From the NCBI GenBank assembly GCA_017464525.1, contig JAFTZM010000022.1, positions 30,562-94,561 of the forward strand: 64,000 nucleotides of DNA. The letters are read 5' to 3'. This document shows, piece by piece, positions 4,969 through 7,290 of the stretch. Each line of letters opens with the position of its first letter. Position 1 is the first letter of the stretch. The notes under the pieces are model-generated. The model saw only the letters and a list, made by a program, of their open reading frames with translations. It was not told the DNA's origin and ran no database searches. A program made the translations under genes and the position numbers. Origin of the DNA: Clostridia bacterium (GTDB lineage: Bacteria > Bacillota > Clostridia > Oscillospirales > QAKW01).

Positions 4969-4988
4969 AAAAATATCATATGCAAATA

Positions 4989-5025
4989 GGAGTAGATTGA
5001 ATGATCTACTCCTTTTTACATATAC
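4989..5025 (+). terminator. rho-independent terminator after rsmG
   Basis: AGGAGTAGAT-TGAATG-ATCTACTCCT followed by TTTTT. Confidence 0.6.
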
Positions 5026-5093
5026 CGTTAAATTAACCAATTATTTTTTAAATCCAATAACCTAACGATCTATTTTATGCATAATGACGAAGT

Positions 5094-5115
5094 AATGTTA
5101 CATGAATGTAACATT
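5094..5115. promoter_or_regulatory. perfect 10-bp-arm palindrome AATGTTACAT-GA-ATGTAACATT (candidate operator)
   Basis: Exact inverted repeat in the AT-rich leader of the island operon. Confidence 0.3.
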
Positions 5116-5191
5116 TTAAAAAGTATTGTATATTTTATAGCAATAATATATAATATAATTAGAATAATTATTATAAAAGGAGGACTTCAAT

Positions 5192-5281
5192 ATGTATCAT
5201 GTTTCTATCCAAATTAAAAGAGATTCTGTCAGTATATGGAATATTCCTTTTAGAACAAATAATTTATTACTGTCCATATAA
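5192..5281 (+). CDS. small ORF of 29 aa (MYHVSIQIKRDSVSIWNIPFRTNNLLLSI) with a strong RBS, possible leader peptide
   Basis: AAAGGAGGA 6 nt before ATG; stop immediately followed by a terminator hairpin; the island is AT-rich so a chance ORF is possible. Confidence 0.25.
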   Translation: MYHVSIQIKRDSVSIWNIPFRTNNLLLSI

Positions 5282-5282
5282 A

Positions 5283-5319
5283 GCGCAGAAACATAGATTC
5301 TTGTTTCTGCGCTTTTTAT
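5283..5319 (+). terminator. terminator/attenuator hairpin upstream of the peptidase gene
   Basis: GCGCAGAAACA-loop-TGTTTCTGCGC followed by TTTTTAT. Confidence 0.5.
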
Positions 5320-5356
5320 AACTACAATAAACAAATAATAGAAAGGAGAAATTAAT

Positions 5357-6424
5357 ATGATTATTAAAAATTTAAATAAAAATATTTTGTTAACACTTAC
5401 TTTAACATTATTTTTATCAATGTTTTCATTAATTGAATTTACTGCATCAGCTGTTAATAAAACTGAGATCGAAAGTAATAATAGACATGCTAATGCAACA
5501 GTCACTTATGATGATTATAATAATTATGGTGTTATTTCCTCTACAACAGATATCGATTGGTGGTAAGTAACCTTTAGTCAATCTGGTTCTGCTAATTTCT
5601 TTTTAGGAAATATCCCATCAGGCCTAAATTACAATCTATTTTTATATAAAAGCAATGGAACAACCATGATTGCCAGATCAATCGATTCAAATGAAACAAG
5701 AAATTCCGAATTGATTACTGCTTATGTAAATGCAGGAGAAACATACAAAATAAGAATTAATTCAACTGCAGGATCTTCAACATCTCAATATCTTTTTAGA
5801 ACAAAAATAACTACAAGTCAACGTCAAGGAAAAGTCTTTACCCAGACTTCTGTGCAACCCAACAATTTGAACACCAGATATAATGCAACTATTATCCTTC
5901 CAGAACTCTGGGAAATGGGGTATGATGCAGGTGAATATGTGGATCATTACGCATCGTCGGCTTATATTCAAATGCCAGACTGTGATTTGGTTGTTATAAC
6001 AAGTCATGGTGATGAAGGCAGAATATATTTTTATGATGATAGTTTTATGACAGGAGGTACTGCTACATATGGAATTCCATACTGTGCCTGTTTACCAAAT
6101 TATGCAACAGGTGCCTTAACCAGAGTAAAGCTTCTGCTTTTTTCAGGATGTAATACTGGAGATTCCTCTTCAATTCATGGCAATTTAGTCGATGTTGCAC
6201 TAAGCAAAGATGTCATGTGTTGTATCGGATGGACAGAAAGTTTCTGGGATGCGGATATCTACTATTGGCATACTAAATTTTTTGAAAAACTATCTGAAGG
6301 GCTTACTGTTGGAGATGCAATAAGTGAAACCAACGCTTGGATTGCAGCATATGCAACAGAACTCTCAACAATAACTGCTCAATATTATGGATCCAGTGCA
6401 CTTCATGCTCTAACATTAAAATAA
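5357..6424 (+). pseudogene. secreted PPC-domain protein with a C-terminal caspase-fold-like (clan CD-like) cysteine peptidase domain, interrupted by an in-frame TAA at 5564-5566
   Basis: Signal peptide. PPC motifs TDIDWW(*)VTF...YNLFLYKSNG...AGETYKIRI continue in the same frame through the TAA. C-terminal domain has a hydrophobic strand + SHG and a hydrophobic strand + SGC, a His/Cys dyad arrangement. RBS AAAGGAGAA. Confidence 0.55.
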
Positions 6425-6446
6425 TACACGAAAGGAGAAAATTCAA

Positions 6447-7253
6447 ATGAAAAAGAAAAAATGGATCATTGCAAGTATATTGAGTTTTTGTATTTTGATG
6501 TCCTTTATTGGAATATCAGTGTTTTCTTCTATGGAATATGATCCAAATTCTTCAAATTCAGAAATAGCAAAGAGCGATACAGTTTATGTACGAAAAAACG
6601 CAGAAAAAACAAAGATAATACAAGATGCAAACGAAGAAGAAAAAATCCTAACTTATACTGAAACCGATCGTAGCATGGAAAATGAAATCGATGTGTATGA
6701 GGATGAATACGGTAACAGTTATATGTATGACGAAGCTGGTAATATAAAGATGTACATTAGTGCGCCTTCTAATGACAGCACCAACACCTCTACACACATC
6801 ACAGAGAAAGGGCTGATTGATACAGCGTGGAATTATGCGGTTCAAACCTATGGTGATCGAATTTCCGGATTTGAATTCATCAGAATTCAAACCTATACAG
6901 CAGAAATGGGAACTTCAGTCTATTTCGGAAACACCTACGGCGTAGATAATTTTATTGTGGGGTCACAAGTGATTGTCACCTTATCTACAAGTGGATCCCT
7001 GAAAAGTTGCACCTTGCGAAAGGAGGAAACAATTCCATTTAACGGTGAACTGGTCAAAGATCTAACAGAAAATACCGTATTATTAGATGCTTCCAGACAA
7101 TTCTTAGAAGAATATCCGAACTATCAAGACGCTTCTATAAATCTATCATCCTGTGAAATTACTCTGCAAAACGATGAATTTGTAATACAAGTATTATTGA
7201 ATTGTACTTATGATGGATTAACCTTTAAAGAATTATACTATTATACAATCTAA
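6447..7253 (+). CDS. membrane-anchored protein with PepSY-like repeats (putative peptidase inhibitor/regulator)
   Basis: N-terminal TM helix; repeated helix plus beta motifs resembling PepSY (IDVYEDEYGNSYMYDEAGNIKMY; TAWNYAVQTYGDRISGFEF...VIVTLSTSG); RBS AAAGGAGAA; 30% GC. Confidence 0.45.
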   Translation: MKKKKWIIASILSFCILMSFIGISVFSSMEYDPNSSNSEIAKSDTVYVRKNAEKTKIIQDANEEEKILTYTETDRSMENEIDVYEDEYGNSYMYDEAGNIKMYISAPSNDSTNTSTHITEKGLIDTAWNYAVQTYGDRISGFEFIRIQTYTAEMGTSVYFGNTYGVDNFIVGSQVIVTLSTSGSLKSCTLRKEETIPFNGELVKDLTENTVLLDASRQFLEEYPNYQDASINLSSCEITLQNDEFVIQVLLNCTYDGLTFKELYYYTI

Positions 7254-7256
7254 AAA

Positions 7257-7290
7257 ACTGCCTCACTTCATTTTGAAGTGAGGCAGTTTT
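7257..7290. terminator. bidirectional rho-independent terminator between island gene and jag
   Basis: CTGCCTCACTTCA-TTTT-GAAGTGAGGCAG flanked by A-run and T-run. Confidence 0.7.

Follow-up and report, generated by a model that had tools for sequence, protein, structure and literature searches.

Clan-CD cysteine peptidases share a fold that is found in caspases, gingipains, legumain, separase and the CHAT proteases, and their active site comprises a catalytic His, usually in a His-Gly pair, and a Cys some 40-50 residues further on, each placed after a hydrophobic beta strand. PepSY domains are short repeated modules that have been proposed as regulators of peptidases. At the level of gene arrangement, it is common in bacteriocin loci for a leaky terminator to separate the first gene from the processing genes behind it. 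In the pil1 locus of S. gallolyticus, ribosomes that translate a leader peptide and reach the stem-loop destabilise a premature terminator (PMC3894217), and ribosome-mediated attenuation has also been documented for bmrB-bmrCD of B. subtilis (PMC4191407).

The locus described here occupies positions 4969-7290 of a 64,000-nucleotide stretch of DNA (the window) and contains a leader with a small ORF and a terminator hairpin, a gene for a predicted secreted clan-CD peptidase, now a pseudogene, and an intact gene for a membrane-anchored partner. Taken jointly with all other parts of the explanation that we favour, it seems somewhat probable that this island is a horizontally acquired, three-part accessory operon with a sporadic distribution in gut and rumen Clostridia.

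The island lies next to the replication origin and is set apart from its surroundings by composition, with a GC content of 32% against 53% in the remainder of the window. A 300-nt scan gave GC fractions of 0.21-0.39 throughout 4951-7350 and of 0.53-0.58 on either side. GC3 is 0.20 in the peptidase gene, 0.31 in the partner gene and 0.20 in the small ORF, values that are the lowest of 47 long ORFs, except for one gene in a second island; the two genes on its flanks, rsmG and jag, have a GC content of 53% and a GC3 of ~0.7, and mnmG, rsmG, jag, yidC and rnpA fall at 0.67-0.71. The left neighbour is rsmG (4225-4968; Pfam GidB, E 1e-48), the intrinsic terminator of which (4988-5019, plus strand; 11-bp stem at 4988-5013, then TTTTT) forms the left edge of the island, where GC drops from 0.58 to 0.23. 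The right edge is a bidirectional terminator common to the island and jag (7254-7290), a perfect 17-bp stem with a 3-nt loop, preceded by an A-run and followed by a T-run, beyond which lies jag/khpB (7292-8152, minus strand; Jag_N, KH and R3H domains).

The fall in GC and the foreign composition claimed in a preliminary description of this DNA are thereby confirmed, codon usage (GC3 of 0.20-0.31 against ~0.7 in the flanks) included, as are the positions given there for the two terminators, the small ORF and both large ORFs. Atypical composition and codon usage are as expected of a horizontally acquired island. The window contains no integrase or transposase ORF and no tRNA gene, and no significant flanking repeats were found around the island. 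Searches for phage, plasmid and viral relatives of the cassette returned none, and a reading of the island as phage or plasmid cargo was dropped on these searches. A strain of 99.6% identity also carries the island.

Transcription of the cassette is predicted to start from a promoter at 5126-5154 on the plus strand (-35 TTGTAT at 5126-5131, 17-nt spacer, -10 TATAAT at 5149-5154). Its -35 box is weak, with three of six consensus positions, and was missed by a consensus promoter scan; in the alignment with a related locus (L007) a consensus promoter, TTGACA-17-TATAAT, falls at the corresponding position, and L011 likewise carries TTGACA-17-TATAAT. Read from the sequence, a perfect inverted repeat (AATGTTACAT-GA-ATGTAACATT; 5094-5115) sits 11 nt 5' of the -35 box, its 10-nt arms and 2-nt centre agreeing with the palindrome noted previously. 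By a rough estimate, the chance of such a repeat in a 400-nt AT-rich leader is ~0.02. The repeat possibly represents an operator, and no conservation of it was seen in related loci. A second, weak promoter-like sequence, TTGTTT-16-TACAAT, overlaps the 3' arm of the terminator hairpin (TACAAT at 5323-5328), and the structural genes could be expressed from it independently.

The small ORF of 29 codons (MYHVSIQIKRDSVSIWNIPFRTNNLLLSI; 5192-5281, plus strand) has its ribosome-binding site (RBS), AAAGGAGGA, at 5176-5184, 7 nt upstream of the start. An intrinsic terminator hairpin, the putative attenuator, begins 1 nt past its stop codon (GCGCAGAAAC / GTTTCTGCGC, then TTTTT; 5283-5317, plus strand, stem 5283-5312 and T-run 5313-5317), with a GC-rich stem of 10-11 bp; the fold of the whole 203-nt leader has a z of -3.0. 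The arrangement is as expected of a leader-peptide attenuator: a translatable small ORF with an RBS lies between promoter and structural genes, and is followed by an intrinsic terminator. Small ORF and hairpin were found in five peptidase loci and one partner-only locus, with homologues of the small ORF in L007, L006/L014 and L008 and a diverged type in L011 and L038. The cassette can occur without the leader, which 4 of the 10 peptidase loci lack (L001, L009, L012 and L035), while L036 is cut by a contig end. A covariance model (R1) scored 66-137 bits in the six leader loci used to build it and detected no further leaders in all related loci examined; an Rfam search of the leader matched no family.

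Conservation of the small ORF is concentrated at its end, where the peptide carries the motif [ITV]P[FV]RTxxL[LI]LS. Across codons 18-28, 27 synonymous codon differences stand against 22 non-synonymous ones, second positions differ in 8 of 66 comparisons and third positions in 34 of 66, and amino-acid identity amounts to 44 of 66 in frame as against 23 and 17 in the other frames. Judged by these substitution patterns, codons 18-28 are under coding constraint. The N-terminal 16 codons are almost unconserved, 83 of 93 comparisons being non-synonymous in codons 2-17. In all six leaders the small ORF ends from 0 nt before the hairpin to ~20 nt inside it, and in four loci the Ser codon of the motif lies 6-7 nt ahead of the hairpin. 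A conserved C-terminal segment of ~10-15 residues, a variable N-terminus and a fixed place relative to a regulatory RNA element are together expected of a ribosome-arrest peptide; we know of no described leader or arrest peptide with this motif. Furthermore, three base pairs of the hairpin show compensatory changes across the six loci. Small ORF and hairpin are not incidental, and form the best-conserved non-enzymatic part of the cassette. Their importance had been underweighted in the preliminary description.

RNAalifold analysis of five leaders returned the terminator helix as the only conserved structure. A classical antiterminator of the trp/his type was rejected on this result, which gave no alternative conserved structure, and because no mutually exclusive structure emerged we propose direct occlusion by the ribosome, after the manner of pil1, in place of classical attenuation. 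A Shine-Dalgarno/anti-Shine-Dalgarno interaction was also set aside: the conserved UUCCUUUU pairs with the small-ORF RBS in the single-sequence fold, but this pairing is unconserved and the substitutions are of the coding type. We envisage that the promoter would produce a short leader encoding the 29-residue peptide, the stop codon of which abuts the intrinsic terminator, and that a ribosome on the last codons or on the stop codon would cover the 5' arm of the hairpin. Whether the terminator forms, and hence whether transcription continues into the structural genes, would then be decided by the way in which the leader peptide is translated, with the conserved C-terminal motif probably setting the time that the ribosome dwells there.

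The same elements might be read without an attenuator, as a small-protein gene that stands by itself and ends in a terminator of its own. Its product might be, for instance, a bioactive or precursor peptide needed in larger amounts than the enzymes, and the large genes would be read by leak-through or from a separate promoter. The layout matches the bacteriocin arrangement mentioned above, the -10-like TACAAT at 5323-5328 is available, if weak, and a functional product would be expected to have a conserved sequence, as this peptide does; that conservation, however, is confined to the C-terminal 11 residues and does not extend to the N-terminal 16. In L006 and L008, moreover, the peptide continues into unrelated residues that are dictated by the hairpin sequence, which argues that what counts is the position relative to the hairpin rather than any defined mature peptide. 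An export signal is lacking in the peptide, in contrast to the peptidase with its predicted export, and only ~25 nt separate the hairpin from the peptidase RBS. An independent small-protein gene is, to our mind, rather improbable.

Both large ORFs downstream of the putative attenuator, 5357-6424 and 6447-7253, are preceded by AAAGGAGAA, the RBS that had been claimed for each. The first is a gene for a secreted clan-CD cysteine peptidase (5357-6424, plus strand), in which codons 1-32 correspond to a signal peptide, residues ~35-150 to a PPC-like domain and residues ~155-355 to a caspase-like domain. Its N-terminus, MIIKNLNKNILLTLTLTLFLSMFSLIEFTASA followed by VN, resembles a signal peptide, and the peptidase is predicted to be Sec-exported. 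A structure model of 5567-6421, the part downstream of an in-frame stop discussed below, displays the alpha/beta/alpha sandwich of clan CD. His217 (6005-6007, plus strand; VVITSHG) and Cys265 (6149-6151, plus strand; LLLFSGC), separated by 48 residues, each come after a beta strand (model strands E141-144 and E189-196) and are invariant in nine of ten loci; they are the predicted catalytic pair, at the spacing expected of clan CD. A caspase-fold-like peptidase had been proposed earlier.

Assignment to a known family is less direct. No Pfam peptidase family was matched by the window protein: Pfam CHAT (PF12770) gave no match at E<=1, nor did the Pfam/NCBIfam models for gingipain C25, clostripain C11 and caspase C14. 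A homologue (P0005) scored 25.3 bits against Pfam CHAT, where the cut-off is 24, and a PDB profile search returned CHAT 8tl0 at E 0.22 only. By its modelled fold, the window peptidase is a relative of CHAT at fold level and not a detected CHAT member. An intracellular defence role, as held by CHAT proteases in CBASS, Craspase and gasdermin systems, was rejected on account of the signal peptide, the lack of PADLOC matches and the absence of the partner genes of those systems.

The PPC domain claimed for the N-terminal part corresponds to a weak Pfam match (PF04151; 19.8 bits under a cut-off of 25.9, E 0.0015, profile positions 2-70 of 70, residues 66-136), a relative (P0006) matches at E 0.017, and this part was modelled at a pLDDT of ~60-70 only, without its first strands. 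The N-terminal module recurs in other secreted proteins, with 53-59% identity over ~125-140 residues up to a YLFRTK junction, and is there fused to M23, 3D and C39-like enzymes; the M23 relative, in L013, is followed by an unrelated lipoprotein gene. The peptidase family itself is small, with about a dozen proteins. A metagenome scan with a profile of the catalytic domain gave no matches, and one with a full-length profile gave two, both to the N-terminal domain only.

While the placement of the peptidase gene stands, its description as a single open frame does not: an in-frame TAA occupies codon 70 (5564-5566, plus strand), inside the N-terminal domain, and gene callers split 5357-6424 into ORFs of 69 and 252 aa. 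The knocked-out state of the gene had been underweighted or missed. In the seven intact homologues that cover this region, the site holds Lys or Gln (six DVDWWK/Q, one DVDMWQ). To judge from the sequence, a Lys-to-stop change at codon 70 has removed the secreted peptidase in the present genome and left leader and partner intact, and the cassette is here a partly decayed copy. The 285 codons past the TAA stay open, for which the chance is ~2e-10 at the composition of the island, so that either the lesion arose recently or the frame remains in use. It would nevertheless be very improbable that the TAA is an assembly error or a decoded codon and the peptidase functional in this genome. Two more assemblies from separate sequencing runs (L003 and L004, each 100% identical to the window) show the same TAA, and TAA is a normal stop in the present genome because rsmG, the small ORF, the peptidase ORF and the partner gene all end in it. 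The next in-frame start is 100 nt downstream of the TAA, has no RBS and would give a product without a signal peptide; disrupted peptidase copies, furthermore, are also present in L007 and L036.

The partner gene (6447-7253, plus strand) is intact and encodes 268 aa, with an N-terminal membrane anchor, a D-x-Y-x-DE...Y-x-Y...G motif and two tandem alpha/beta modules that are homologous to each other (internal repeat, hhalign 94%). Its structure model is of low confidence (pLDDT 41), and the secondary structure, a helix and three to four strands, twice, is compatible in pattern with PepSY. The PepSY identity proposed in the preliminary description finds no support in sequence: Pfam PepSY (PF03413) matched neither the window partner nor its seven syntenic orthologues at E<=1, and it matched only one of 78 members of the wider family (E 0.004). 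DUF4901 (PF16244, the YcdB/YcdC repeated domain) is matched by 14 of the 78, the window partner not among them; one member exceeds the cut-off (P0143, 31 bits versus 27) and P0083 reaches 19.6 bits. The partner family thus appears distantly related to DUF4901, on which, as on YcdB/YcdC, a literature search found nothing relevant. The family comprises at least 176 clusters at 50% identity and is seen only by exhaustive profile search; a single-sequence search recovered the partner itself only, and a word-indexed profile search two proteins. Since this family is far larger than that of the peptidase and its members also adjoin unrelated genes, the partner may have a function of its own.

Ten independent loci from gut and rumen Clostridia carry peptidase and partner together, with the partner directly downstream in every one and the genomic site different each time, which bears out the claim of a gene pair. 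The neighbours of the cassette differ in every locus, and the cassette is AT-rich against every host background. Like the preliminary description, we could match it to no described system. Pairwise identities of peptidase and partner correlate (r = 0.88, 45 pairs), with means of 42% for the peptidase and 29% for the partner. The GC3 of the partner gene is host-like in L009, L011 and L012; recent insertion of a peptidase before a resident partner, as a general rule, is countered by the co-divergence of the two genes.

The peptidase is disabled in three of the ten loci, by a nonsense change in the window, a frameshift in L007 and the replacement of His by Asn and Cys by Ala in L036, and is deleted in one sister strain (L032, which is without the peptidase segment and has flanks 98-99% identical to L012). 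L012 and L032, of a lineage other than that of the window, provide the one presence/absence comparison that bears on foreign origin. The partner is intact in all of these disabled or deleted loci, and partner-only loci also exist (L038, L039 and L040). Between two strains of 99.6% identity, the partner shows three synonymous and zero non-synonymous changes. The dead-enzyme homologue in L036 could mean an additional, non-catalytic role.

In the explanation towards which we lean, a terminator controlled by the leader peptide drives a secreted protease and an extracytoplasmic partner, the latter an inhibitor or immunity-like protein. The first structural gene would yield a Sec-exported cysteine peptidase with a PPC-like beta-sandwich ahead of a caspase/gingipain/CHAT-like catalytic domain, and the second a membrane-anchored protein, co-inherited with the peptidase, whose ectodomain consists of two tandem alpha/beta modules; we infer that the partner would bind the peptidase on the outer side of the membrane and serve as its cognate inhibitor or as an immunity-like protector. 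A more specific form, offered tentatively since we hold it to be doubtful as a whole, is that the leader encodes an undescribed ribosome-arrest or sensor peptide that would switch the terminator by ribosome occlusion, and so control a new secreted clan-CD protease and its cognate membrane-anchored inhibitor or immunity protein.

The strict adjacency and co-divergence of the two genes would also suit a partner that acts as a maturation, folding or anchoring factor, comparable to a PepSY-type propeptide or to the co-dependence of YpeB and SleB. Both proteins are predicted to be extracytoplasmic, and the tandem helix-plus-sheet modules of the partner resemble PepSY-like repeats in pattern, but a PepSY sequence signal is absent. 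A dedicated helper, moreover, would be expected to disappear with its client, whereas the partner is kept intact beside dead or deleted peptidases and is also found alone; such a helper function therefore appears improbable.

This retention of the partner, where the enzyme was lost or disabled in four lineages, and the existence of orphan partner genes would also fit an antibacterial effector and its immunity protein. The PPC-like module would then be a targeting or delivery domain on interchangeable secreted enzymes, in keeping with its presence on M23, 3D and C39-like proteins, and the caspase-like domain a warhead against the surfaces of competitors; the partner would be an outward-facing immunity protein, kept after loss of the effector against the effectors of neighbours. 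The faster divergence of the partner (29% against 42% mean identity) agrees with this, as does the M23 relative of L013 with its unrelated lipoprotein gene, as if each warhead had an immunity protein of its own. To our knowledge, however, clan-CD peptidases are not a known class of antibacterial warhead, and we found neither a dedicated secretion system nor a match to a toxin family; searches with PADLOC and for phage and plasmid sequences came back negative, although none of these targets bacteriocins. We consider an effector-immunity pair unlikely; it overlaps the preferred explanation in making the partner a protector and differs from it only in the target.

If the preferred explanation is true, three uncharacterised parts gain a first functional context. 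The peptidases would form a distinct subfamily of secreted caspase/gingipain-like proteases in gut and rumen Clostridia, and the clan-CD proteases that gut bacteria secrete attract interest in connection with the degradation of host proteins and mucus. The membrane-anchored, DUF4901-related family of gut Clostridia would receive its first functional assignment, and the leader would be a compact leader-peptide/terminator switch, with a conserved peptide motif that could represent a new sensor of the nascent-chain type. That the protease was lost repeatedly while the partner was kept gives an evolutionary signature, open to testing, of a role in protection or immunity. What this means for the present genome is more modest, namely a foreign island with a dead protease gene.

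Among described proteins, the closest clan-CD relatives to be named are CHAT (PF12770; SAVED-CHAT, PDB 8tl0), the gingipains RgpB/Kgp (C25) and the metacaspases and caspases (C14), with which the window peptidase shares a sequence identity of 10-15% only. A signal peptide and a PPC-like domain at the N-terminus set it apart from the structurally solved CHAT proteases, which act intracellularly (defence systems, an anti-sigma factor); unlike these clan-CD proteases, it has an obligate downstream partner and is, here, a pseudogene. Its N-terminal module resembles PPC (PF04151) as a beta-rich module of ~70-110 residues on secreted peptidases with a D-x-D-W-W/Y-x-h-x-F signature, but is N-terminal and not C-terminal and is also carried by M23, 3D and C39-like enzymes. 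Like DUF4901, the partner family is made up of membrane-anchored proteins of Firmicutes that are extracytoplasmic and built from repeated helix-plus-sheet modules, although the window partner itself matches neither DUF4901 nor PepSY. The leader, finally, is like those of pil1 and bmrB in that a short ORF with a strong RBS lies directly before, or runs into, an intrinsic terminator ahead of structural genes; it lacks the repeat-based phase variation of pil1 and the conserved alternative stem-loops of bmrB, and whereas those leaders regulate a pilus and a drug pump, the present one precedes a secreted peptidase and a membrane protein.

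The AT-rich island between rsmG and jag (4969-7290) has a GC content of 32%, against 53% in the remainder of the 64-kb window, which confirms the drop reported in the preliminary description. Every 300-nt window across ~4950-7350 lies at 0.21-0.39, compared with 0.55-0.58 before and 0.57 after. GC3 is 0.20 in the small ORF of the leader, 0.20 in the peptidase frame and 0.31 in the partner gene, versus 0.67-0.71 in mnmG, rsmG, jag, yidC and rnpA; only one other gene among the 47 long ORFs of the window (mean 0.62, sd 0.12) is comparably low, and it is located in a second island at ~50 kb. 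The flanking genes were correctly named, rsmG matching Pfam GidB (E 1e-48) and jag/khpB carrying Jag_N, KH and R3H domains, and a terminator scan recovered both border terminators, at 4988-5013 plus a T-run on the left and at 7254-7290, with a perfect 17-bp stem, on the right. Searches for phages, plasmids and defence systems revealed no link to the island.

The gene order is mnmE-mnmG-rsmG, the island and then, on the opposite strand, jag-yidC-yidD-rnpA-rpmH with a class II aminoacyl-tRNA synthetase gene (10003-11385, minus), beyond which an AT-rich gap precedes dnaA (11601-12965)-dnaN-recF-gyrB. This gap (11390-11600, GC ~0.25) holds the point at which cumulative GC skew is lowest within the first 14 kb and is likely the replication origin, ~4-6 kb from the island. 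The island thus occupies a convergent gene junction, whereas the two flanking gene blocks are co-oriented in the Bacillus-type arrangement, in agreement with the proposed synteny break-point.

The frame at 5357-6424, described earlier as a secreted peptidase gene, is indeed one frame, but its codon 70 is a TAA (5564-5566). At this position, the seven intact homologues that include it encode Lys or Gln (six with DVDWWK/Q, the P0005 lineage with DVDMWQ), and one substitution suffices to turn AAA into TAA. Two other assemblies, derived from separate sequencing runs and matching the window at 100% identity over 3.2 and 4.1 kb, have the identical TAA, a codon that also normally terminates rsmG, the small ORF, the peptidase frame and the partner gene. 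Since the next in-frame start, 100 nt downstream, lacks an RBS and its product a signal peptide, the sequence indicates that the secreted peptidase is not made in this genome. With 285 open codons still following it (chance probability ~2e-10 at island composition), the lesion is probably of recent date, and the cassette in this genome is a decaying copy.

The second AT-rich island (49200-51950, GC 0.34-0.39) encodes a PadR regulator (49455-49889, minus), a secreted protein of 305 aa whose frame is terminated by a TAG (50042-50959, GC3 0.25), a 94-aa ORF (50995-51279) with a weak C-terminal Peptidase_C39_2 match (E 0.005) and, following it, a lipoprotein-like 236-aa ORF. The stretch 50042-51279 has the appearance of a second gene for a secreted cysteine peptidase, likewise split.

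Translated through the stop, the peptidase consists of a typical signal peptide (ending ...FTASA/VN), a beta-rich domain of ~115 residues and a C-terminal domain of ~200 residues. The Pfam match that weakly suggests the PPC domain claimed for the beta-rich part reaches 19.8 bits, below the cut-off of 25.9, and spans the stop codon. This N-terminal module also occurs in other proteins, fused to M23, 3D or C39-like enzyme domains. At one related locus from another assembly (L013, 2241-4791), a 609-aa secreted protein combines this PPC-like N-terminal module, a ricin-type lectin domain and an M23 peptidase, and its gene is followed by one for a 235-aa lipoprotein unrelated to the partner family.

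The C-terminal domain has no family match in Pfam or NCBIfam. Fold comparison of the peptidase model returned SAVED-CHAT (8tl0; score 18.2), the gingipains RgpB (17.6) and Kgp (16.1), the CHAT anti-sigma factor DdvA (16.0), metacaspases (~14) and separase, legumain, MALT1 and caspases (13.8-11), and the Foldseek result was consistent with this list. His217 (VVITSHG) and Cys265 (LLLFSGC) are conserved throughout the family alignments, one locus (L036) excepted, and each is preceded by a beta strand, the clan-CD signature; together with the fold matches, this supports the caspase-fold-like peptidase first proposed. Although CHAT proteins and gingipains have the closest folds, sequence comparison does not place the peptidase in any of their families. 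Only four full-length relatives (34-49% identity) were found among 5.8 billion proteins, one of them with a weak CHAT annotation, and the peptidase is predicted to represent a new, very small secreted clan-CD subfamily. Locus L001 additionally encodes, upstream of its peptidase, a 473-aa secreted protein (6489-7910) without a Pfam match, whose C-terminus has its own SHG...DAC motif pair, possibly marking another clan-CD-like domain that has diverged strongly. Just upstream, on the other strand, lies a gene for an ECF sigma factor.

The partner (6447-7253, 268 aa) had no relatives by single-sequence search and no Pfam or NCBIfam match. Directly 3' of each peptidase relative, however, lies a gene for a protein of 267-317 aa, 18-36% identical to the window partner, and a six-frame profile scan of the collected loci placed a partner downstream in 10 of 10 independent peptidase loci (the window, L001, L006/L014, L007/L010, L008, L009, L011, L012, L035 and L036). 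An exhaustive profile search (E<=1e-3) expanded the family to 176 representative clusters, nearly all of 260-310 aa. Pfam DUF4901 (YcdB/YcdC repeated domain) was matched by 14 of the 78 members scanned, one of them above the cut-off (31 bits vs 27), while PepSY was matched by a single member (E 0.004); at the sequence level, the earlier PepSY assignment is therefore not upheld. The three-dimensional model (pLDDT 41) was unusable for judging a PepSY fold. Residues 112-192 and 193-268 are mutually homologous (hhalign probability 94%, E 8.5e-8), which implies an architecture of an N-terminal membrane anchor, a conserved D-x-Y-x-DE...Y-x-Y...G stretch and a tandem pair of helix-plus-sheet modules. 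The partner is best described as a distant relative of DUF4901, a family without known function, of which a literature search found no mention. At three loci (L011, 3307-3858; L040, 5857-6375; L041, 1338-1856), though not in the window, the partner-family gene is followed by a third, related gene, whose product of 172-183 aa is membrane-anchored at its N-terminus and contains the motif H-[VL]-VNY[YF].

The cassette is AT-rich in every host (GC 0.34-0.40 against backgrounds of 0.48-0.58) and its neighbours differ at every locus; GC3 is 0.20-0.36 for the peptidase at all loci and 0.28-0.62 for the partner. Pairwise identities of the two proteins are strongly correlated (r = 0.88; 10 loci, 45 non-independent pairs), indicating co-inheritance of the two genes. 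The partner diverges faster, with a mean identity of 29% vs 42% for the peptidase. Between two 99.6%-identical strains sharing the island, it differs by three synonymous substitutions and none that are non-synonymous.

Loss of the peptidase is frequent across these loci, whereas the partner is never lost. Besides the nonsense mutation of the window, L007 (8015-8025, on a contig shared with L010) has a 1-nt insertion (tta-t-agt) inside the N-terminal domain that yields overlapping ORFs of 91 and 268 aa; coming from a single metagenome-assembled genome, this frameshift could be real or an assembly error. In L036 (3-965), both catalytic residues are replaced, His by Asn (SHG to ANG) and Cys by Ala (SGC to SAY), in an otherwise open and conserved frame with an intact partner downstream, and this homologue is possibly a pseudo-enzyme. 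Of two Ruminococcus-like strains, L032 is without the peptidase segment present in L012, its flanks being 98-99% identical to those of L012 (L012 5775-7114 vs L032 65-205), and it retains the promoter, which directly drives the partner. An AATAT repeat at both edges of the missing segment suggests deletion by microhomology. Partner-family genes without any peptidase occur in L038, L039 and L040/L041.

Strict adjacency, co-divergence, faster partner evolution and, above all, retention of the partner where the peptidase is dead or gone argue that the partner would be a cognate peptidase binder, an inhibitor or immunity-like protein protecting the producer's envelope. A dedicated maturation helper would be expected to disappear together with its client, and this retention speaks against such a role. 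As M23, 3D and C39-like secreted enzymes carry the same N-terminal module, the whole cassette may, less probably, be an inter-bacterial effector-immunity pair.

The leader elements described earlier, namely the palindrome at 5094-5115, the small 29-codon ORF (5192-5281) with its AAAGGAGGA RBS, the hairpin (5283-5317) and the two AAAGGAGAA RBS, are all readable in the sequence. Among the window, L007, L006/L014 and L008, the alignment of upstream sequences extends from the promoter (consensus TTGACA-17-TATAAT in L007; TTGTAT-17-TATAAT at 5126-5154 in the window) through the small ORF and its RBS to a hairpin whose stem, GCGCAGAAAC/GTTTCTGCGC, is shared, and a T-run. The layout recurs in diverged form in L011 and in the partner-only L038; it is absent from L001, L009, L012 and L035, and in L036 it is cut at the contig end. 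The leader matched no Rfam family, and a covariance model built from six leaders found no further copies in the collected loci. Elsewhere in the window, an AdoCbl (cobalamin) riboswitch scores 56.3 bits against a gathering score of 50 (59880-60022, minus).

The leader peptides read MYHVSIQIKRDSVSIWNIPFRTNNLLLSI (window), MFLIYVNECDGFAEKQCIPFRTNALLLSR (L007), MVFKRLYSGGSFAPQKLTPFRTEVLILSIECAEDR (L006) and MHIYVFHPGDSVEARPVPVRTHALILSFPRAETAIQ (L008). Codons 18-28 show 27 synonymous vs 22 non-synonymous differences, with swaps among Arg AGA/CGA/CGC and Leu TTA/TTG/CTG/CTC/CTA codons; second positions differ in 8 and third positions in 34 of 66 comparisons, and amino-acid identity is 44/66 in this frame vs 23 and 17 in the alternative frames. 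Hardly any conservation is seen in codons 2-17 (83 non-synonymous of 93 comparisons). This coding-type pattern indicates translation of the small ORF and selection acting on the last 11 residues of its peptide. Of the RNA structures, the terminator alone is conserved, three of its base pairs showing compensatory changes. In six of six leaders, the 3' end of the small ORF falls somewhere from the base preceding the stem to the loop. In a single-sequence fold, the RBS region of the small ORF (AAAAGGAGG) pairs, within 5174-5252, with UUCCUUUU, which encodes the Ile-Pro-Phe of the conserved motif; as it is not conserved among five aligned leaders, this pairing is probably incidental.

Promoter, small ORF, terminator and the two genes form one compact unit: the peptidase ATG follows the T-run after 39 nt, and a 22-nt spacer separates the two genes. 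When positioned at the final sense codons or the stop of the small ORF, a ribosome would reach ~12-15 nt downstream and cover the 5' arm of the hairpin (5283-5292), so that termination at 5313-5317 would occur only when no ribosome is at this end. A conserved C-terminus behind a variable N-terminus, at a fixed distance from an RNA element, is the pattern that would be expected of a nascent peptide modulating its own ribosome. Upon read-through, both products would be exported: a signal peptide would direct the peptidase, and the partner would be anchored N-in/C-out.

The main interest of the cassette lies in the conserved leader peptide and the orphan partner family. While the leader matches none of the known ribosome-dependent attenuators, it may be likened to them: in the pil1 leader of S. 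gallolyticus, the leader-translating ribosome directly destabilises the terminator (PMC3894217), and bmrB-bmrCD is subject to ribosome-mediated attenuation (PMC4191407).
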